This document shows positions 1 through 9,572 of a DNA stretch of 64,000 bases, in pieces (positions within the stretch are counted from its first letter, which is position 1; each line of letters starts with the position of its first letter). A program made the position numbers and the translations under genes. The DNA is from an uncultured Acidobacteriota bacterium (GTDB taxonomy: Bacteria; Acidobacteriota; Thermoanaerobaculia; Multivoradales; SZUA-115), in contig CAWDVR010000002.1 of assembly GCA_963805975.1 (NCBI GenBank), positions 1 to 64,000 of the forward strand, read 5' to 3'. Under the pieces are notes generated by a model. The model did not search any database, was not told the origin of the DNA, and saw only the letters and a program-made list of their open reading frames with translations.

Positions 1-146
1 ACTCTCAACAACTGGCGTTCGGAAGGTACCGGCCCGACTTTTCATAAGCTCGGCCGCCGCACCTCTACACGCGCGCCGACCTCGACAGTTGGGTGGCGTC
101 GTGCCGGCGCCGGAGCACCAGCAGCACCGAGTGCAGGCGGGGCTGA
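1..146 (+). CDS. 3' part of an excisionase/AlpA-like HTH (HTH_17-type) DNA-binding protein, with an apparent frameshift near 62
   Basis: Frame 1 reads TLNNWRSEGTGPTFHKLGRR. After a one-base shift it continues LYTRADLDSWVASCRRRSTS...TGA (144-146), the typical wHTH excisionase pattern. The start lies outside the window. Confidence 0.6.
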
Positions 147-660
147 CGAGAGGGAAGCCCGCATACTGGCAGCCGCACGCCACCGAAGCGGTGAGACTGT
201 GAGGCAAACTGCCGGAAGGGCTCTCGGCTCCGACAGGTCGGCGAAGCTCGGCTTCCTTCCTTCGATCAAGCCCTTCCACTCGGTGCTCGATGGGTTGAAG
301 GAGGACCCGGCGCCGCTGAAGATCCGCGGCGCCGGTGAGTCTGGCAGGAGGGCCATCCTCACTTCCTCGAAACGCGTTACTCCAGGACGCTGGAAGAGAA
401 GGCACCGGACCACAAAGGGCGCCGGGAACCTCTCCGAGCTAGTGAGCCTCCTGGGGGTCCCGAGTTCCACCTGGCAAGCGGCCCGTGAGCTTGCGACCCG
501 GGGAGTTTTCGTGAAAGCGAAAACACAGCTCGGTGTAGAAGATGCCGTAACTGATGATGAGGAAAGAGGATGGGGGCTGCGCGATGCTGAGCACCACCGC
601 GACAGCGTCCGTCGGGTTAATGCTGGCCAACTCGCTGTCGCGGAGAACCAAGATGCACTA

Positions 661-667
661 GTTAGGC
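661..667 (+). other. Left recombination site (GTTAGGC core) of the cassette array; attI-like or secondary site
   Basis: GTTAGGCGTCTGGGTCA (661-677) is the near-perfect reverse complement of TGACCAGACGCCTAAC (1511-1526), the R'' end of the first cassette. No attC hairpin precedes it. Confidence 0.65.
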
Positions 668-698
668 GTCTGGGTCATCCATATCGGTAACCAAGGCG

Positions 699-860
699 AT
701 GACGAAGAAGGCAGGAGAACTGCTCCGCCAAGCCCTCGACTTCAGCGAGGCGGATCGAGCCGAGCTGGCTACGTACTCCTTTGAGGCTGAAAGACCCCTT
801 TCCGTTCCCCCGGACTTGCCACACCCTCGCCACGATTCTGGGCGATGCTCCGGAACATGA
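699..860 (+). pseudogene. Remnant of a putative addiction-module antitoxin component (TIGR02574-like N-terminus)
   Basis: MTKKAGELLRQALDFSEADRAELA resembles the family N-terminus; the rest of the ORF shows no similarity. Confidence 0.3.
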
Positions 861-1525
861 AGCTCTTTCTGGGGTTCGCCGCGCTCTTCGCGCTCATCCT
901 ATTCTTCACGCTCCATTGGAGCTCGGAGGAGCGGCTTGGCACCCACACAGTGGACAAGCCTCGGAGGCCGTCATTCGCGGTTAGAGTGGGTCAAGGCCCC
1001 CCTCGACCGGCCGCTCCTTGGGCTCTTCCCCGAAAAGTGGCTCACGAAATGGACCCAAGTCCCGGCGAGCTGAGCTTCGATCATTCGAGCCCTGGCGCCA
1101 GCGGAAGTGTCGGCCCGTCTCACGCCTCGAGTTGCACGCGGAAGGCTGGCATCTCCTCCTCGAACTCGACCGCGATGGCCGCGTCACTCCCGAGACAGCC
1201 CTCGTGCTCCCGATGAACCATGCGGGGCGACGCCGGGCGCTTCATTGCCGTCCGTCGCGACAGGCTCGGTGCCGATCTCCGTGCCACCCCTGCCGACGTC
1301 CCCGGCGCGTTCGACGGTGCGCCTTCCGCTTTCAGCTCTCCGCTGTCGAGGTCGCCGCGACGGGAGAAGCCATCGATTGGCCGGTGGCGCCGATGACCGT
1401 CACCGGGAACTTCACGGCGCTGCCGGCAGTGAGCACCGGCGGCGAGCGCCGTCCCCGTCGGGATCCGCCGGAACCGGGATTTGTCGCTCCAGCAGACCTC
1501 AGACCCTTCGTGACCAGACGCCTAA
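857..1525 (+). pseudogene. Cassette 1 ORF: secreted/membrane-anchored hypothetical protein split by frameshift(s)
   Basis: Hydrophobic N-terminus MKLFLGFAALFALILFF (ORF 845-1216). Protein-like sequence continues in ORF 1018-1653 (RLELHAEGWHLLLELD...FRFQLSAVEV) up to the attC. Confidence 0.35.
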
Positions 1526-1596
1526 CCCCCTCGTTGCAGCGGACACCACCGGGCATTCACCCGGGCGGTGCCGCTGAAACTCATACACCGTTAGAT
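1520..1596 (+). other. Integron attC site 1 (R' box interrupted by the IS)
   Basis: R'' GCCTAAC (1520-1526), inner arms TTGCAGCGG/CCGCTGAA, R' GTTAG (1590-1594) followed by AT from the IS. Confidence 0.85.
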
Positions 1597-1739
1597 CCTA
1601 TGCGTGGTCCGGGCGGTAGGTGGATCGGAAGGAGCACGGGTCGTCCCGAGTAAGCTTCCTTTGAGACCGAGCAAAGGGAGGAGCTGAGCTCTCAGACGAC
1701 CCGTGGTAAGGGGTATAGCGCAGAAGGGCCCCTCGGACG

Positions 1740-2829
1740 GTGTATCTGGCTTTCGAGCTGGGCAACACGGAGTGGAAGCTGGCGTTCACGGTGGGGCTGG
1801 GGCAGAAGCCTCGAGAGCGGACGATTCCGGCTGGTGAGGTTGGACGGCTGGCGGAGGATCGAGCGGGCGAAGCAGCGGTTTGGCCTGGCCAGTTCGGCCC
1901 GAGTGGTGAGCTGTTACGAGGCGGGGCGAGACGGGTTCTGGTTGCATCGGTTCCTGGGCGAGGTGGGGGTGGAGAGCCTGATCGTGGATTCCTCGAGCAT
2001 CGAAGTGCAGCGTCGAGGTCGGCGAGTGAAGACCGACCGACTCGATGCACGCAAGCTGGTGACGATGCTGATCCGCTACGACGGGGGTGAGCGCAAGGTG
2101 TGGAGCGTAGTGCGGGTGCCGGCATTGGAGGAAGAAGAGAATCGGCAGCTTCACAGGGAGCTGGGAGAGCTGAAACGCGAGCGGACGCGCCTGACGAACC
2201 GGATCAAGGGCTTACTCGTGGGCCAGGGGATACGGATCGAGCTGAAGAGGGACTTCGTCGAGCGTCTTGGAGCGGCGCAGATGTGGGATAGCAGCCCTGT
2301 GCCGGCGGCGCTGCGCTGCCGGCTACTGCGGGAGTGGGAGCGCGTGGAGCTGATCAACCGACAGATTCGGGAGCTGGAAGACGATCGCGAGGAGCTGGTG
2401 CGGGAGTGGGACAGCCCGGAGGTCGAGAAGGTGCGCAGGCTGATGCAGCTACGCGGGATCGGGATCAACTTCTCCTGGCTTCTGGTCATGGAGTTCTTCG
2501 GGTGGCGACGGTTCCGCAACCGGCGTCAGGTGGGGTCTCTCGCGGGCCTGGTGCCGACGCCGTACCAGAGCGGCGCCAGCAGCAGGGAGGCAGGCATCAG
2601 CAAGGCAGGCAACGTGTGGGTGCGAGCGGTGGCCATTGAGATGGCCTGGGCCTGGTTGCGATTCCAGCCCCGCAGTGAGCTGGCAAGGTGGTACCGAGAG
2701 CGCTACGCTCAGGGCGGCAGTCGGATGCGACGGATCGGGATCGTCGCAGTGGCTCGCAAACTCTTGGTGGACCTCTGGCGGTACCTGGACTGGGGCGTGA
2801 TCCCAGCCGGCGCTGCCCTGAAGGCGTAG
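1740..2829 (+). CDS. IS110-family DEDD transposase/recombinase (frameshift near 1857; true start probably near 1685)
   Basis: YLAFELG, SCYEAGRDG and KTDRLDA RuvC-like motifs; C-terminal GLVPTPYQSG...ISKAGN. The two ORFs (1740-2090, 1834-2829) join if one base is restored. Confidence 0.9.
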
Positions 2830-2858
2830 CAGAGTCGGAGTATTGATGAGAGCTGACG

Positions 2859-3036
2859 CTGGTGGAGGTGCCCGTTGTGCCGCCGGGTCTTCGAGTGAGG
2901 ACCGAACGTTAGATGGGGCCACCCCGAGAGGGCTTCACCAGTTCGCCGAAGTCGAATGCAGGATTAGGTGCTCGGCCGAAATGAGCCGACACGGATAGAA
3001 GGTTGCTCAGGCGCAGTGACGCCTGACCCTCGGCGA
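2859..3036 (+). ncRNA. Predicted bridge/seek RNA of the IS (target-binding loop plus donor-binding loop)
   Basis: Stems CTGGTGGAG/CTTCACCAG, GGTCTTC/GAGGACC, TCGCCGA/TCGGCGA and GTG-C-TCGGC/GCCGA-CAC. The loops carry TGCCGCC and AACGTTAG (target) and AGGATT and ATAGAAG (donor). Confidence 0.75.
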
Positions 3037-3069
3037 GGCCCACAGCGACGGCTTGGAGTTGAAAACGAA

Positions 3070-3103
3070 AGCGGGGATCAGTCCGGATCCGGAGATCCCC
3101 GCT
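3070..3103 (+). terminator. GC-rich hairpin in the IS right end
   Basis: AGCGGGGATC...GATCCCCGCT 10-bp inverted repeat; no clear U-tract. Confidence 0.35.
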
Positions 3104-3184
3104 CGAACCGAGAAGCTTGACGGGAACGGCCTACATAGAAGGCGCGCCTCGGAAGGACTTCGGAGAAGCGTCAGGAGATCAAGA

Positions 3185-3849
3185 ATGAAGGATCTCTCCA
3201 TTGATTTCGGCCTTCTGATTGCGTACTTCATCCCGGGTCTCTTAGGGCTTCGAGCGCTCGCCTATCTTCCACCCAGGCCGCTTGACTCGGTGTTGGCGGC
3301 CTCAGGAACAGAATCCGCTACTGGCATTCTCCTCCAAATCGCCTTTTCTCTGCTGCTCGGCATGGTTATCAGCATCCTCCGCGCCACGCTTCTCGACAGA
3401 ACGTTTGGGCTAAGTATGCGACGTCTGCCGTTCATCCCTGACAAACCTCCGTACGCGGCTGTCAAGCGCGCCGAACCAAAGTATGAGCGTATGCGCGACG
3501 AGGGAATCCTCAACGCCTCCGCGAAGCCCAGCTGCAGGAAAAGAGGCCTTACCAGTTCTATGGAAACTCCCTCCTTTCCTCGGCCCTGCTGGTAGTCTGC
3601 CGGTCATTCACCCACACTGACCGTGCACTTGATGGGGAGCTGCTTTGGCTTCCTCTCCTGATGATCGGCTGGGGGTCACTCTACGTAGGGGCTCGCACTT
3701 CCCACGCCCGCTACATGAATGCCGTGGAGAAAGCTGAAGGCTCTACCACCCTGAGAGCAAGCCTAACGCGGCCAGTGGTGCGGCCCTCGCCTACGGCGTC
3801 GCCGCTCACCGGCAGCAACGTTAGACGCCGGAGGAAATGCGCAACGTGA
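3185..3849 (+). CDS. Cassette 2 membrane protein (about 4 TM), with an apparent frameshift near 3517
   Basis: MKDLSIDFGLLIAYFIPG... joins, after a one-base shift, to REAQLQEKRPYQFYGNSLL...LLMIGWGSLYVG. It lies between two attC sites; the 3' end is uncertain because the frame runs through the attC. Confidence 0.6.
3761..3826 (+). other. Integron attC site 2
   Basis: R'' GCCTAAC (3761-3767), imperfect palindrome GCCAGTGGTGCGGC/GCCGCTCACCGGC, R' GTTAGAC (3820-3826). Confidence 0.85.
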
Positions 3850-3962
3850 ATGAGGATATCAGCTTCGACCTCTTCCTCAGCCACAGCGCGAAGGACAAGA
3901 CGGTGGTGGGGCCGCTGGCGGAGAGATTGCGGGCCAATAGCCAGAGGAGTTTCCTGCGATGA
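3837..3962 (+). pseudogene. 41-aa TIR-domain (TIR_2-type) N-terminal stub
   Basis: RBS GGAGG, then MRNVNEDISFDLFLSHSAKDKTVVGPLAERLR (TIR box 1). Its TGA overlaps the ATG of the NACHT gene (ATGA). Confidence 0.7.
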
Positions 3963-6900
3963 AACCCACGCCGAACCCGCTCAGTCAATATCATGTGTTC
4001 CTTGCCTCGCCCGGTGACGTGGGGACGGAACGGCAGTACGTGCGAAGGTTCTTCGATGAATACAACCGCCACACCGCCCATATTTGGCGTGCCCGGTTTG
4101 AGGTTGTGGACTGGGAGAACTACGCGACCATCGGCGTTGGCCGGCCCCAGGAACTGATCACGCAGCAAACTTTGGAGAAGTACCGGAAGTCGTTGGCGTT
4201 GGTCATCGGAATCATGGGCCAGCGGTTCGGCTCGCCGTCCGGCAAGGCGGAGTCGGGGACCGAGGAAGAGTTCAACTGGGCGATGGAGAGCCACAAGTCC
4301 TCGGGCTTCCCGGAGATCAAATGGTTCTTCCGCAAAGTGGACACGTTGGAGTTGCCGGCCGATCCCGACGAGGCGGACGCGGCGCTGGACCAATGGAAGA
4401 AGGTCCGCGCCTTCCGCAAGCGGATGCAGGACCTGAACAACCCGGTCTTCTACGCGGAGTATCCGAGTTCGGCCGGATTTGCCGAGGTCTTCGAGCGCGA
4501 CCTCAACCAATGGCTGGCCGATCCGGCGCGCCCGTGGGCTGCGCAATTGGCGGCCCACGTTGCGGCCACGGGCGGCTCGGCCGCAGTCGCACTGCCCGCC
4601 GAGTTCGATGCGGAACGCTACCGGGCCGCGGTGCTCAAGCAGTTCGACAAGCTCAACTTCGAGATGCTCGACACGACCGGCGCGTTCTACAGCGCTGTCC
4701 GGCTGTGGAGTGTCTTTGTCCCGCAGTCGGTGCGGGAATGCCATCAATACAACCCGCGGCTGCTGGAAATCCCCAAGGAACACCAGCGGCGGCTATTGGA
4801 CGCTGGCGAGATCACCACGAAGGAACTCGAGGAAGCCGAGCAGCAGGCGGATCGGCTGCGGCAGGAGTACTTCCACCAGCCGCTCCGTCCCGTGCTGGAT
4901 GTCGTGGATGAGGCCCTTCGTACATCGCCGGCAGGGGCCGGGCGGAAGCTGGTCATCTTGGGCGACCCTGGCTCCGGCAAGTCGTCGCTGATCCGCTATC
5001 TGGCCCTGCGCTGGGCGGGAATTGCCGAACCGACAGTTCGGGACACGCAGCCAATTCCGCTGGTGGTCGAGCCGGGCACCTACGCCCGCTGGCAGTGCGA
5101 CGGCCGCAAGGATTTCATCCGCTACCTAGAGGAAGGCCCGGTCTGGCACGGATGGCAGCGCGGCCTGCTCAGCCGGCTGCTTGAACAGCCCGGGCGGGTC
5201 GTTTTGCTGCTCGATGGGTTGGACGAAGTCTTTGACGTGCCGACGCGCGAGACGGTGATCAACGACATTCAGCGGTTCGCCAGTCAGTTTGCCAATGTAC
5301 CGGTCGTCCTCACGTCGCGCGTGGTGGGCTATCAAGCGCAGCGGTTGCGCGAGTCCGAGTTCCGGCACTTCATGTTGCAGGATTTGGACTCCACACAAAT
5401 CATCGACTTCGTGAATCGCTGGCATGGGGTGACTTTCGACGACCCGGCGCAGGCGGCTCCGAAGCGGGACCGCTTGCAGAAGGCGATCCACGAATCCAAG
5501 TCCATTGCCATGCTGGCCGGCAACCCGCTCCTCCTGACCATGATGGCCGTTCTGAACCGCAACCAGGAATTGCCGCGGGACCGGGCCGACCTGTACGCCC
5601 AGGCGTCGCGCGTGCTTCTGCACCAGTGGGACACGGAGCGCGCGCTGGAAGACTTTCCGGGGATGAGCACCGAAATCGGCCTGCGGGAGAAGACCGACAT
5701 CCTCCGCCGCCTCGCCGCACACATGCAGGCCGGTCCCGGCGGGCTAAAAGGCAACATGATTGATGGCTCGACGCTGGCCGACTTGATCGAGGAGTACCTG
5801 CAGAACGAGCTGCATTTCGCCCAAGCCCGCGCCGCGGCCCGCGCCGTTGTCGATCAGTTGCGGCAACGCAATTTCATTCTCTGCTTCGTCGGCGCGGACA
5901 GTTACGCCTTTGTGCACCGTACGTTCCTGGAGTACTTCTGCGCCGCCGATTTCGTGCATCAGTTCAACGTTGCCAAGACGCTCGACATCGACGGTCTGAT
6001 CGCCCTGTTCGACCAACACTGCCGCGACGACGAATGGCGCGAAGTCCTGCGGCTGATCTGCGGACAGATCGACGAAACTTTCGTGGGCCGGATCGTCGAA
6101 CGATTGGCCACGCAATCGCCCTTGGAACAATGGAAGGGCACGACGCCCCTTCCCGAAGTGCTTACCGCTGTAGCCTGCCTGACCGAAGCTAGAAACGTGA
6201 TCAAGATAGAGGCCGCTTGTCGGTCCGTAATATGGCGAGTGGCCTCTGCTACGACGCGGCCAGGTACGGTCGAATATACAAGGCGTTTCTTTCAAGAGGT
6301 AATTGACTTAGCTGCCGAGATCCCCTCATGCAGCCAGATATTCGCGAGTCTCGAGCCGCAGCTCTTATCGCTCAGATCGGCGTTCAAGGACGAAATTAAC
6401 TATCGGACTCCGTTCTACCCCAGACTACTCGCCAGTGTTGGTGCCAATCGTCGAACGATAGAGCGATTCGCTGGCGACCCCAAAGAAGGAATTCGTGAAG
6501 GCGCCCTTATAGCGTTGGCGGAGAAGTGGCCGGACCAGACCACCCGCGACCTGCTCGCCCAGCGCGCCGTCCAGGATGACAACTACCAACCCCGCAGCGC
6601 CGCGCTGCAGGCGTTGGCGGAGAAGTGGCCGGACCAGACCACCCGCGACCTGCTCGCCCAGCGCGCCGTCCAGGATGACAACTACCAACCCCGCAGCGCC
6701 GCGCTGCAGGCGTTGGCGGAGAAGTGGCCGGACCAGACCACCCGCGACCTGCTCGCCCAGCGCGCCGTCCAGGATGACAACTACCAACCCCGCAGCGCCG
6801 CGCTGCAGGCGTTGGCGGAGAAGTGGCCGGACCAGACCACCTGCGACCTGCTCGCCCAGCGCGCCGTCCAGGATGACAACTACCAACCCCGCAGCGCCGC

Positions 6901-8344
6901 GCTGCAGGCGTTGGCGAAGAAGTGGCCGGACCAGACCACCCGCGACCTGCTCGCCCAGCGTGCGGTCCAGGATGACAACGAGTACACCCGCAGCGCCGCG
7001 CTGCAGGCGTTGGCGAAGAAGTGGCCGGACCAGACCACCCGCGACCTGCTCGCCCAGCGCGCCGTCGAGGATGACAACGCGGGCCCCCGCCGCGACGCGC
7101 TGCAGGCATTGGCGGCGAAGTGGCCGGACCAGACCACCCGCGACCTGCTCGCCCAGCGTGCCGTCCAGGATGACAACGAGGACACCCGCAGCGCCGCGCT
7201 GCAGGCGTTGGCGGAGAAGTGGCCGGACCAGACCACCCGCGACCTGCTCGTCCAGCGCGCCGTCCAGGATGACAACGAGGACACCCGCAGCGCCGCGCTG
7301 CAGGCGTTGGCGGAGAAGTGGCCGGACCAGACCACCTGCGACCTGCTCGCCCAGCGCGCCGTCCAGGATGACAACTACCAACCCCGCAGCGCCGCGCTGC
7401 AGGCGTTGGCGAAGAAGTGGCCGGACCAGACCACCCGCGACCTGCTCGCCCAGCGTGCCGTCCAGGATGACGACTACCAACCCCGCAGCGCCGCGCTGCA
7501 GGCGTTGGCGAAGAAGTGGCCGGACCAGACCACCCGCGACCTGCTCGCCCAGCGCGCCGTCGAGGATGACAACGCGGGCCCCCGCAGCGCCGCGCTGCAG
7601 GCATTGGCGGCGAAGTGGCCGGACCAGACCACCCGCGACCTGCTCGCCCAGCGTGCCGTCCAGGATGACGACGCGGACAACCGCCGCGACGCGCTGCAGG
7701 CGTTGGCGGAGAAGTGGCCGGACCAGACCACCCGCGACCTGCTCGTCCAGCGCGCCGTCCAGGATGACAACGAGGACACCCGCAGCGCCGCGCTGCAGGC
7801 GTTGGCGGAGAAGTGGCCGGACCAGACCACCCGCGACCTGCTCGCCCAGCGCGCCGTCCAGGATGACAACGAGGACACCCGCAGCGCCGCGCTACAGGCG
7901 TTGGTGGCGAAGTGGCCGGACCAGACCACCCGCGACCTGCTCGCCGAGCACGCCGTCCAGGATGACAACGCGGACAACCGCCGCGCCGCGCTGCAGGCGT
8001 TGGCGGAGAAGTGGCCGGACCAGATCACCCGCGGCCTGCTCGCCCAGCGCGCCGTTGAAGCACCGGATATGTCGGAACGCGGTGCCGCCTGTTCCGCCCT
8101 GGGCAAGATGCACTCCGAGTTCGGCCGCATCCTGCCGACGCGAGACTTCGACGGCGTCGGGCCGTATCTCGATCCCCTCGAACCGATTCCACGCCAGCAC
8201 ATCGAGAAGGCAGCAGCGAAGGTTGGTATCCGTCCCGACGAGATCGACGCCCACGTCGCCGCGCTGTCGGCTTACTTGGGGTGGGAGGTCATGAGCGGGG
8301 CGAAGACCGATCGACCAAAGCCTGGCCACAAGCGGCGCAATTGA
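3959..8344 (+). CDS. NLR-like protein: DUF4062/TIR-like N-terminal domain + NACHT NTPase + HEAT-like repeats
   Basis: VFLASPGDV...GQRFGSPSG...SGTEEEF (DUF4062-like); Walker A GDPGSGKS; Walker B LLLDGLDE; GNPLLL; FVHRTFLEYF; C-terminal 33-aa helical repeats. Confidence 0.9.
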   Translation: MKPTPNPLSQYHVFLASPGDVGTERQYVRRFFDEYNRHTAHIWRARFEVVDWENYATIGVGRPQELITQQTLEKYRKSLALVIGIMGQRFGSPSGKAESGTEEEFNWAMESHKSSGFPEIKWFFRKVDTLELPADPDEADAALDQWKKVRAFRKRMQDLNNPVFYAEYPSSAGFAEVFERDLNQWLADPARPWAAQLAAHVAATGGSAAVALPAEFDAERYRAAVLKQFDKLNFEMLDTTGAFYSAVRLWSVFVPQSVRECHQYNPRLLEIPKEHQRRLLDAGEITTKELEEAEQQADRLRQEYFHQPLRPVLDVVDEALRTSPAGAGRKLVILGDPGSGKSSLIRYLALRWAGIAEPTVRDTQPIPLVVEPGTYARWQCDGRKDFIRYLEEGPVWHGWQRGLLSRLLEQPGRVVLLLDGLDEVFDVPTRETVINDIQRFASQFANVPVVLTSRVVGYQAQRLRESEFRHFMLQDLDSTQIIDFVNRWHGVTFDDPAQAAPKRDRLQKAIHESKSIAMLAGNPLLLTMMAVLNRNQELPRDRADLYAQASRVLLHQWDTERALEDFPGMSTEIGLREKTDILRRLAAHMQAGPGGLKGNMIDGSTLADLIEEYLQNELHFAQARAAARAVVDQLRQRNFILCFVGADSYAFVHRTFLEYFCAADFVHQFNVAKTLDIDGLIALFDQHCRDDEWREVLRLICGQIDETFVGRIVERLATQSPLEQWKGTTPLPEVLTAVACLTEARNVIKIEAACRSVIWRVASATTRPGTVEYTRRFFQEVIDLAAEIPSCSQIFASLEPQLLSLRSAFKDEINYRTPFYPRLLASVGANRRTIERFAGDPKEGIREGALIALAEKWPDQTTRDLLAQRAVQDDNYQPRSAALQALAEKWPDQTTRDLLAQRAVQDDNYQPRSAALQALAEKWPDQTTRDLLAQRAVQDDNYQPRSAALQALAEKWPDQTTCDLLAQRAVQDDNYQPRSAALQALAKKWPDQTTRDLLAQRAVQDDNEYTRSAALQALAKKWPDQTTRDLLAQRAVEDDNAGPRRDALQALAAKWPDQTTRDLLAQRAVQDDNEDTRSAALQALAEKWPDQTTRDLLVQRAVQDDNEDTRSAALQALAEKWPDQTTCDLLAQRAVQDDNYQPRSAALQALAKKWPDQTTRDLLAQRAVQDDDYQPRSAALQALAKKWPDQTTRDLLAQRAVEDDNAGPRSAALQALAAKWPDQTTRDLLAQRAVQDDDADNRRDALQALAEKWPDQTTRDLLVQRAVQDDNEDTRSAALQALAEKWPDQTTRDLLAQRAVQDDNEDTRSAALQALVAKWPDQTTRDLLAEHAVQDDNADNRRAALQALAEKWPDQITRGLLAQRAVEAPDMSERGAACSALGKMHSEFGRILPTRDFDGVGPYLDPLEPIPRQHIEKAAAKVGIRPDEIDAHVAALSAYLGWEVMSGAKTDRPKPGHKRRN
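6503..8056 (+). repeat. 99-bp coding tandem repeat, 15 full units plus 1 partial
   Basis: Unit ALQALAEKWPDQTTRDLLAQRAVQDDNxxxRSA; units start every 99 bp from 6503, with unit 16 at 7988. Confidence 0.97.
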
Positions 8345-8515
8345 TGGGCACCATGTGGTCGACGAGAGGCATGACTCTGGCGGGGGACGCCGGGATGATG
8401 GAGGCCAGGATCTTGAAGCACGACTTGGCGCACGAACCCTCGGTGCAGGAGTTCGCGCGCGGCGCCCGCAAGACACACCTCTTGCGGGCGATCGGTTAGT
8501 CGTGCGCACATCGGC

Positions 8516-8579
8516 GTTTAACAACCGGTTGCAGCGGACGGTCCGCTGCGCGGCCCGCCGCGGAACCGGAGCGTTCGGC
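8516..8579 (+). other. Integron attC site 3 (right end of the array)
   Basis: R'' GTTTAAC (8516-8522), arms CCGGTTGCAGCGG/CCGCGGAACCGG, R' GTTCGGC (8573-8579). CGGCGTTTAAC is complementary, with 1 mismatch, to GTTAGACGCCG at the start of cassette 3. Confidence 0.8.
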
Positions 8580-8852
8580 CCTCCTATCGCCTTACCCGCC
8601 GCCTTAGGTACGCTGTCGAGTGGCATGCCGGGCTGAGGGCCGCCTCAAGAGCCTTCCAAAGCGCATGCTGAGCGCATGCCGAGCAATTCGGAAGCAGCGA
8701 GGCTCCCGGAGTCAATTCTCCGGAAGGCTCAGATTAAGCGAGACTTAGGACGACCTGACCTCAGTCTCGGCAGCTTGACCGAGTATGTGAGGATTTCCGG
8801 GAGGACCCGAAACGCAGCAGATCGACCGCGGAGCAGGTATTCGTGGGCGCTC

Positions 8853-9572
8853 TTAGGGAGTTTCGATCCGGAAGGAGCGGGCCATGGTGGTGGGCCCGTC
8901 GAGCACGGTCCAGAGGTATTGGACGCCCGGCCGGAGCTTCGCTCTCTCTTCCTCGGGGAACTGCATCTCGCCCCCTGCGGTCGGCGGGCTGGTCCAGCGG
9001 TGGGAGCCGTTGGCCTCGAACAGCAGCACTCGCTGCGGCGCGCCGTCTCCGGCCGGGAACACGAACTTCTCGGGCGGCGCGGCCAGGGTGCCCGCCGGCG
9101 AGAAGTCGCCGTCCTCGGCCTGGGTGCCGCGGAGGTTGTCTTCCTGCGCCGGAGCCGGCATGACCTCGGGGCGGGCCGTCCACCACAGGCCGAGGCCCAC
9201 CGCGCCGGCCGCCAGCGTGGCCGCGAGCGCCAGGACCGGCGGCTCCAGGAAGCGGCGCCGCCGAGACTCGGCCCTGGGAGCCCGCCAGGGCAGGGCCGCC
9301 GCCGCCGGGGGCTGGGTCGCTCGGGGCTGGGCCACCGGAGCCTCCACCGCCTGGCGGAAGCGCTCCCACTCGGCCTCGAGCTTGGCGGCCGGCACCGGCT
9401 GGGGCCGGTCGAACGCCTCCAGGCGCAGCAGCTCTTCAGAGCACGCGGCGCAGGTCGCGGCATGGGCCAGCACTCCCTCGGCCTCGGCGCCTCGCGGACC
9501 CCGGGAGGCGCGGTACAGCTCTTCTGCCGAGGGATGCGGCCCGGACGGGCGCCGGGGCGTGGGATCGGTCAC
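8853..9572 (-). CDS. Membrane-anchored anti-sigma factor (zinc-binding HxxxCxxC)
   Basis: GTG start overlapping the sigma stop; HPSAEEL...HAATCAACSEEL motif; TM segment VLALAATLAAGAVGLGLWW; extracytoplasmic C-terminal domain. Confidence 0.8.
   Translation of the reverse strand: MTDPTPRRPSGPHPSAEELYRASRGPRGAEAEGVLAHAATCAACSEELLRLEAFDRPQPVPAAKLEAEWERFRQAVEAPVAQPRATQPPAAAALPWRAPRAESRRRRFLEPPVLALAATLAAGAVGLGLWWTARPEVMPAPAQEDNLRGTQAEDGDFSPAGTLAAPPEKFVFPAGDGAPQRVLLFEANGSHRWTSPPTAGGEMQFPEEERAKLRPGVQYLWTVLDGPTTMARSFRIETP

Follow-up and report, generated by a model that had tools for sequence, protein, structure and literature searches.

The start of contig C2 of an uncultured Acidobacteriota genome (G000), a stretch of 64,000 nucleotides that is referred to here as the window, carries an IS110-family element inserted in an attC site. 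This location raises the question of how the element finds its target. The original prediction, made from the window alone, read the region downstream of the transposase as a bridge or seek RNA programmed against attC. Comparison with related elements makes it very probable that the region encodes an IS110-family bridge RNA, which would guide the recombinase to the attC sequence GTTAG^GC by IS621-type pairing.

The element and its transposase

The element comprises 1547 bp (window 1595–3141, with one AG core counted in), and a second copy is located at C4:8296–9842. The copies differ in 15 alignment columns, all within window 1628–1856, and are identical in the RNA region. Their main features are as follows.

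1595–1686 (+), left end of the element, beginning with ATCCTATG; short inverted repeat CTATG at 1598–1602; boundary set by the C4 copy
1687–2829 (+), IS110-family recombinase gene; start approximate, frameshifted near the 5′ end in this contig-end copy
3117–3141 (+), right end of the element; −35-like TTGACG at 3117–3122, inverted repeat CATAG at 3134–3138, AG core at 3140–3141; boundary set by the C4 copy
C4:8388–9530, intact recombinase gene of 380 amino acids

An AG dinucleotide core is present at both junctions (1593–1594 and 3140–3141), as in the C4 copy, otherwise without target duplication. The terminal inverted repeat (CTATG/CATAG) has only 5 bp, below the 11–13 bp of the IS1111 criterion. 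The TTGACG at the right end may form part of a promoter; promoter scoring of the linear element copy returned no hit. A search of sequencing runs found no reads of this genome (best share, 0.15) and listed no RNA data set.

Relatives were collected by scanning genome contigs with the intact protein. The best 80 of 161 relatives, together with the two copies of the genome itself, gave 82 loci, among which the RNA was parsed in 66 (48 distinct), the left end in 69, and the right end in 50. The left-end motif of the window element recurs in 69 of the 82 loci. With a left end of about 90 nt and a right end of 294–727 nt (50 loci), these elements carry their RNA downstream of the transposase, unlike the layout of narrow-sense (IS621-like) IS110 elements. 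Five loci (L014–L018) have about 260 additional bases between stop codon and RNA, and in L013 the RNA is interrupted by another insertion.

The intact transposase scores 192.7 bits against the NCBIfam model NF033542 (IS110; cut-off 140); matches to PF02371 and PF01548 were also obtained, although on the truncated frame PF01548 stayed under its cut-off. Its catalytic set (E23/E78/D117/D120/S295) is conserved among relatives and corresponds to the DEDD RuvC-like motif and Tnp-domain serine that define IS110. No row departs from D117, D120, or S295, and E78 occurs in each of the 85 rows covering its position; the first catalytic residue is glutamate rather than aspartate in 78 of 88 rows. The D, D, and S were aligned to IS621, and E23 was equated with D11 of IS621 by motif position alone; only the C-terminal domain aligns significantly with IS621 (E = 8e-10). 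By PLSDB annotation labels, the nearest named transposases are ISMno20 (47.6% identity over 87% of the query) and ISRel9 (38%).

The frameshifts of the window copy likely represent contig-end assembly noise, because the start of contig C6 repeats that of C2 with 95% identity and 52 gap openings over 2 kb. Although the original prediction had envisaged tests with a repaired transposase, no repair is required, since the intact C4 copy has the same RNA region.

A search with RNA model R1 (E ≤ 0.001) found no transposase-less RNA copies in the same genome. Decayed remnants of the right end of a related element, without transposase, are present twice (C4:2541–2609 and 3109–3328), in each case before or near a cassette-like gene; R1 assigns them no score. 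Among 300 other genomes of the class, eight have weak matches to the element (best, 71% over about 190 nt) and none has a near-identical copy; viral contigs contained no relative.

Two insertions in the R′ box of attC

The attC consensus consists of R″ (RYYYAAC) and R′ (GTTRRRY), which pair on the folded bottom strand, and of L boxes with one extra base. The site is asymmetric, with a short spacer after R″ and the extra base in L″, and the integrase crossover is at G^TT. In the window, the following parts can be distinguished.

1520–1594 (+), attC1, left part of the interrupted target; R″ GCCTAAC at 1520–1526, stem, R′ GTTAG at 1590–1594 (AG core at 1593–1594)
3142–3148 (+), right half of the target, with the rest of R′ and the start of the next cassette; 4/7 match to the guide
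3761–3826 (+), attC2, empty; 5/5 match to the guide left of the core, 3/7 right of it

When the element is removed in silico, the bottom strand of attC1 folds with its R box paired (−21.6 kcal/mol). R″ pairs with R′ on the folded bottom strand of this restored site, of attC2, and of the C4 site. The L boxes of the C4 site match at 7/7 positions in top-strand orientation, and no such match was resolved at attC1 or attC2. Both copies are inserted after GTTAG, in R′ and in the sense of the array, and the neighbouring open reading frames are codirectional with the transposase. The guides described below match the C4 site at 10/12 positions and both attC1 and the empty attC2 at 8/12.

Insertion in R′ leaves a core of GTTAGAT, which still conforms to GTTRRRY, and the next cassette then has the element at its 5′ end; the R-box pairs are absent from the minimum-energy fold at both occupied sites. 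The left-end AT that completes this core is no adaptation to attC, as it is also present in 62 of the 69 protein-selected loci, which are mostly not at attC.

No integron integrase above cut-off was found in this genome, and C4:12215–12361 encodes a C-terminal integrase fragment, truncated beside an unrelated gene; the attC clusters therefore lack a working integrase in this assembly.

The array has several other features. An additional R′-like core is present at 661–667. Directly after attC2, a short frame (3846–3960, +) has a start that, by eye, we take to resemble a TIR domain. It precedes a 1461-aa open reading frame (3959–8344, +) with a weak DUF4062 match, a NACHT domain, and HEAT repeats encoded by a 99-nt unit present 16 times, which looks like a cassette-borne NLR-like defence gene. 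This gene is followed by the left half of an attC-like site (about 8515–8570) whose right half is decayed. On contig C6 (positions 1–9000, overlapping window 1–2027), the array leads on into sequence that contains a 411-aa open reading frame, probably a tyrosine recombinase, and a small HTH-like frame (both labelled by eye), which suggests a genomic island.

A predicted two-loop RNA downstream of the transposase

The predicted RNA consists of two loop domains, each carrying a pair of guides.

2851–3007 (+), conserved core of the predicted bridge RNA, with target loop, linker, and donor loop; from alignment A1, pair counts, and model R1
2865–2924 (+), target-binding loop domain; outer stem 2865–2873 with 2916–2924, inner hairpin 2886–2903; from pair counts
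2877–2884 (+), 5′ target guide, GTGCCGC followed by the core C; complement of the top-strand sequence on the right side of the core; equivalent to the IS621 LTG on the CT strand
2906–2912 (+), 3′ target guide, ACGTT followed by the AG core; same sequence as the left flank; equivalent to the extended RTG of IS621
2913–2914 (+), predicted target-loop handshake dinucleotide AU; same as the first two left-end bases
2960–2965 (+), 5′ donor guide AGGAT(T); complementary to the left end
2968–2992 (+), inner hairpin of the donor loop; 6/8 pairs with changes on both sides
2995–3001 (+), 3′ donor guide, ATAGA followed by the AG core; same sequence as the right end
3002–3003 (+), predicted donor-loop handshake dinucleotide GU; its first base follows target position +1

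All segments quoted in the original prediction were recovered at their positions: TGCCGCC (2878–2884), GGTCTTC (2886–2892), GAGGACC (2897–2903), AACGTTAG (2905–2912, repeated at 3817–3824), AGGATT (2960–2965), and ATAGAAG (2995–3001, repeated at 3135–3141).

Compensatory changes are found in the inner hairpins of both loops and in the outer stem of the target loop. In pair counts over the 68 of 88 RNAs that entered the alignment, the three helices are paired in 88.0% of 1421 cells, compared with 37–49% in slid controls, and none of 500 shuffles reached this value. The outer stem was placed by hand from one row and then counted; RNAalifold on A1 recovered the two inner hairpins but missed this stem. 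An outermost stem of the donor loop did not emerge from the pair counts of A1; otherwise, the two internal loops are closed by stems. The proposed fold thus found comparative support, whereas a single-sequence fold of 2830–3141 lacks the full structure (z = −1.47). The window contains no Rfam match at the gathering score, and its match to R1 is not independent, as the training set of R1 includes the window sequence.

Guides follow flanks and ends

Covariation was tested with one row per distinct RNA, the window included, and 20,000 permutations. Among the protein-selected loci, the 3′ target guide matches the left flank at 141 of 190 positions (n = 38; null mean, 61.5), and the 5′ target guide matches the right flank at 180 of 216 (n = 36; null mean, 83.5; the better of two registers was taken for both data and null). 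The 5′ donor guide matches the left end at 144 of 160 positions (null mean, 108.5; null maximum, 123) and the 3′ donor guide the right end at 177 of 180 (null mean, 171.5). None of the permutations equalled the observed matches for any of the four guides. Three RNAs with the donor guide ATAGG all have ATAGG ends, and three with AGAGA mismatch their ends; in the latter (L050, L071, and L082), the right end reads ATAGA, a mismatch between guide and donor that is kept within one subclade.

The signal reaches 5 nt to the left and 7 nt to the right of the core. Matches of the 3′ target guide amount to 34, 31, 30, 25, and 21 of 38 at positions −1 to −5, and those of the 5′ target guide to 32, 33, 32, 30, 30, 23, and 23 of 36 at +1 to +7. 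By contrast, position −6 matches in only 4 of 38 cases. The 8-nt identity with attC2 on which the original prediction relied is therefore partly due to chance, although 5 nt plus AG (2906–2912) do covary. Likewise, TGCCGCC was correctly recognized as lying in a target guide, but the covarying part comprises the 7 nt at 2877–2883, followed by the core C at 2884.

Kinship was controlled by greedily pairing 75 elements by protein identity into non-overlapping pairs with differing guides. The flank of the element itself fits its guide better than that of its sister in 29 of 37 pairs, worse in 2, and equally well in 6, and in some pairs whose proteins are 84–94% identical, guides and flanks switch together. 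The short-branched sister transposases of L027 and L151, with guides GCGTC and CCGTT, document one natural retargeting event. All four loop segments thus covary with flanks or ends across relatives, as the original prediction had demanded of its homologues.

An IS621 layout transcribed from the other strand

The handshake dinucleotides at 2913–2914 and 3002–3003 had no place in the original prediction. In 32 of 36 RNAs, the base that directly follows AG in the donor loop tracks target position +1, against a null mean of 13.7 and a null maximum of 23; the base next to it shows no covariation (5 of 36). In the target loop, A corresponds to A at +1 in 33 of 33 cases, a position that is invariant and hence uninformative, and T to T at +2 in 23 of 33. 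A location of the handshake in the 5′ loop segments was ruled out, with 2–10 of 32 matching.

Read on the opposite strand, the target consists of 7 nt, CT, and 5 nt. This is the 14-nt layout known from ISCro4 and from IS621 when its right guide is extended (PMC11208160, PMC11208158, PMC13626964, and bioRxiv 10.1101/2025.05.14.653916). The handshakes AU and GU and the dinucleotides at positions 6–7 (GC in the target, AT in the donor) are identical to those of wild-type IS621. Because the opposite-strand reading yields 7+CT+5 and the same handshakes, the AG core with right guide before left guide is the IS621 layout transcribed from the other strand. The assignment to bridge- or seek-type RNAs therefore holds, but the weight placed on core and guide order was overstated: the reversed order is not a new mechanism, the sole difference being that transcription runs the opposite way relative to the core.

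Relatives at attC and the choice of its end

Insertion at attC is not restricted to this genome. The GTTAG guide is present in 7 of 48 distinct RNAs of the protein-selected set (the best 80 of 161 relatives and the two own copies). A metagenome scan for this guide together with the donor motif found at least 118 stretches, 80 of which were listed and used. Among these listed matches, a transposase is located upstream in 68 of 80, with 46–71% identity in the best segment. Readable left flanks end with GTT in 46 of 47 cases, and right flanks complete GTTRRRY in 62 of 66. The 5′ guide, which was not part of the scan pattern, contains GCGGC in 47 of the 68 distinct RNAs among the listed matches, and guide positions −5/−4 match the flank in 73 of the 80 (null mean, 31). 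Together with the location of both genome copies after GTTAG and the covariation of the guides, these flanks substantiate the attC core as the natural target.

Among the listed matches, a strict attC fold test was passed by 16 of 30 long flanks, compared with 27 of 300 shuffles; of the 14 that failed, some appear by eye to be degenerate attC sites and some do not. GTTAG-guide elements at ill-fitting sites are L071, L096, L104, and L126. Mapping of the guide as a label required 8 changes on a FastTree tree of 88 rows, 3 of them forced by starred branches, in a sample biased towards this guide, and 9 changes on a quick IQ-TREE tree of 71 rows, obtained by dropping 21 close sisters and adding 4. 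A single origin of the GTTAG guide is unsupported by either count; the trees do not separate gain from loss.

The attC site is a near palindrome, and the same GTTAG core therefore also occurs on the bottom strand of R″. Among 34 tested sites, 16 could be oriented, with 8 insertions on the top strand (R′, sense) and 8 on the bottom strand (R″, antisense); the other 18, including attC1 and attC2, gave no orientation. A C at guide position −4 is present at 8 of 8 top-strand sites vs. 1 of 8 bottom-strand sites (Fisher's p = 0.0014, overstated since kin were counted as independent). Independently, the longer flanking open reading frame is sense-directed in 25 of 32 loci with the C guide vs. 4 of 14 others (p = 0.0024, likewise overstated since related elements were counted as independent). 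An earlier orientation test based on Shine-Dalgarno sequence and open reading frame did not discriminate, with 15 of 43 in sense, 7 of 43 in the control, and 14 of 43 with an open antisense frame. Close sisters can differ in the attC end they occupy (L106 vs. L117 and L139). Guide bases −5/−4 thus likely decide which end of attC is used.

A third position in attC is represented by L058 and L062 (left junction near 1405), which have a GTCAG guide and, as judged by eye, lie on the bottom strand at the inner edge of L″; L080 resembles both but has no right end. In other relatives (L010–L012, L078, L021, L045, L063–L068, L072, and L073), the guides match short palindromic repeats that we take to be REP-like rather than attC.

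Relationship to known systems

With IS621 and ISCro4 (PDB 8wt6 and 9t56), the element shares two internal loops with the target loop first, a 14-nt target (7+CT+5 on the opposite strand), a short terminal inverted repeat, and the serine in the Tnp domain; with IS621, it also shares the handshakes AU and GU against GC in the target and AT in the donor at positions 6–7. It differs from both in the location of the RNA downstream of the transposase, transcription from the AG strand, glutamate as first catalytic residue, and attC as target.

The long downstream non-coding region, in which the top-strand guide precedes the bottom-strand guide, and the attC target are shared with the IS1111-attC group (ISPa21, ISPst6, ISKpn4, and ISPa25). 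Targeting of attC by seekRNAs has been demonstrated experimentally for ISKpn4 and ISPst6 in PMC11187229, which also reports the reversed guide order for IS1111 and mentions that short repeats and a non-coding region downstream occur together in some elements. The IS1111-attC elements have subterminal repeats of 11–13 bp rather than 5 bp, and they are described as inserting near the 5′ end of attC in antisense (PMC3001079), whereas the window and C4 copies are located in R′, at the 3′ end, in sense. Some of the relatives studied here do fit the IS1111-attC position.

The annotated ISRel9 (L209:760–2330, PLSDB) has the same ends, the AG core, and a downstream two-loop RNA that matches its own flanks by eye, with a weak match to R1 (E = 0.009); ISRel9 and ISMno20 differ from the present element in their guides and are not at attC. 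ISPpu9 also recombines at an AG dinucleotide (PMC12288879) and forms circles but targets REP sequences, has its bridge RNA upstream, and possesses a D-type N-terminal motif (by eye). Group IIC-attC introns are likewise RNA-bearing mobile elements that home to attC; as outlined in PMC3001079, they reverse-splice into the bottom strand, as opposed to the DNA recombination considered here.

A search of openly accessible article text found no specific description of this clade or of the GTTAG^GC site, and no paper naming any two of ISRel9, ISMno20, ISAzs35, and IS110 together. What looks new is the combination of lineage and site, i.e., a clade related to ISRel9 and ISMno20, with a short repeat and a downstream RNA, that inserts at GTTAG^GC. 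The clade likely represents a route into integrons separate from the published one.

Proposed mechanism and alternatives

By analogy with IS621, the element would excise as a circle whose ends are joined at the AG core, and a junction promoter with its −35 box in the right end would drive transposase and RNA. The target loop would read a 14-nt site (5 nt ACGTT, core AG, 7 nt GCGGCAC) and the donor loop the circle junction, with the handshake bases AU and GU favouring insertion; catalysis would proceed as in IS621. Insertion four bases past the integrase crossover would leave the consensus core GTTAGAT, so that the downstream cassette would acquire the element as its 5′ part.

That the guide matches are short coincidences in GC-rich DNA and that the protein sets target choice is hardly credible. 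The guides have only 5–7 nt and the single-sequence fold is not significant, but both the permutations and the sister pairs, including those with 84–94% identical proteins that switch guides and flanks together, contradict this explanation. It is also improbable that the element is merely another IS1111-attC member of the ISPa21, ISPst6, and ISKpn4 type with nothing new about it. An RNA downstream of the transposase, the guide order of IS1111, and the attC target (PMC11187229) are what such a member would have, and every second relative that could be oriented is inserted in antisense close to the 5′ end of attC, as described for IS1111-attC. However, the 5-bp inverted repeat, the sense insertion of both genome copies at the 3′ end, and the nearest named relatives ISMno20 (47.6%) and ISRel9 (38%) all point elsewhere, as do the D-type first motifs in the N-termini of ISKpn4 and ISPa25, judged by eye only.

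A third explanation accepts the guides as real but requires a folded attC hairpin or integrase-bound DNA as well, sequence pairing alone being insufficient for site choice. We consider it unlikely, though far from negligible. Nine unoccupied sites in the genome have only 2 mismatches to the 14-mer, whereas the occupied attC1 has 4; many other members reside in palindromic repeats; and the title of a preprint on ISPpu10 contains the words "sequence-structure dual-match". Yet empty sites are little informative in a genome with only two copies, the guides follow the flanks base by base, also among attC sites, and several insertions with a GTTAG guide among the listed matches have no detectable attC fold. 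Pairing of the predicted bridge RNA with the attC core remains the preferred reading.

Implications for integrons and bridge recombinases

A broader scenario can be put forward tentatively, and we would sooner doubt than assert it as a whole. Undescribed but widespread ISRel9-like bridge recombinases may parasitise integrons without breaking them, their left end rebuilding GTTRRRY, so that they would travel as integrase cargo in the next cassette and be read from the array promoter, while guide edits of one or two bases would have repeatedly moved insertion among R′ (sense), R″ (antisense), the edge of L″, and non-integron repeats.

The findings extend the rules of bridge recombination, including the handshake bases, to a distant clade with a downstream RNA and glutamate as first catalytic residue, and they suggest that the reversed order of downstream RNAs is the IS621 layout on the other strand. 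As a tool, the system is one more candidate orthologue, with a naturally full 14-nt guide and no sign of an advantage over IS621 and ISCro4, which already work. For environmental cassette arrays, it represents a common resident with a readable rule for the attC end that is hit. Provided that an occupied attC remains active, the element would be spread by integrases together with the cassettes.
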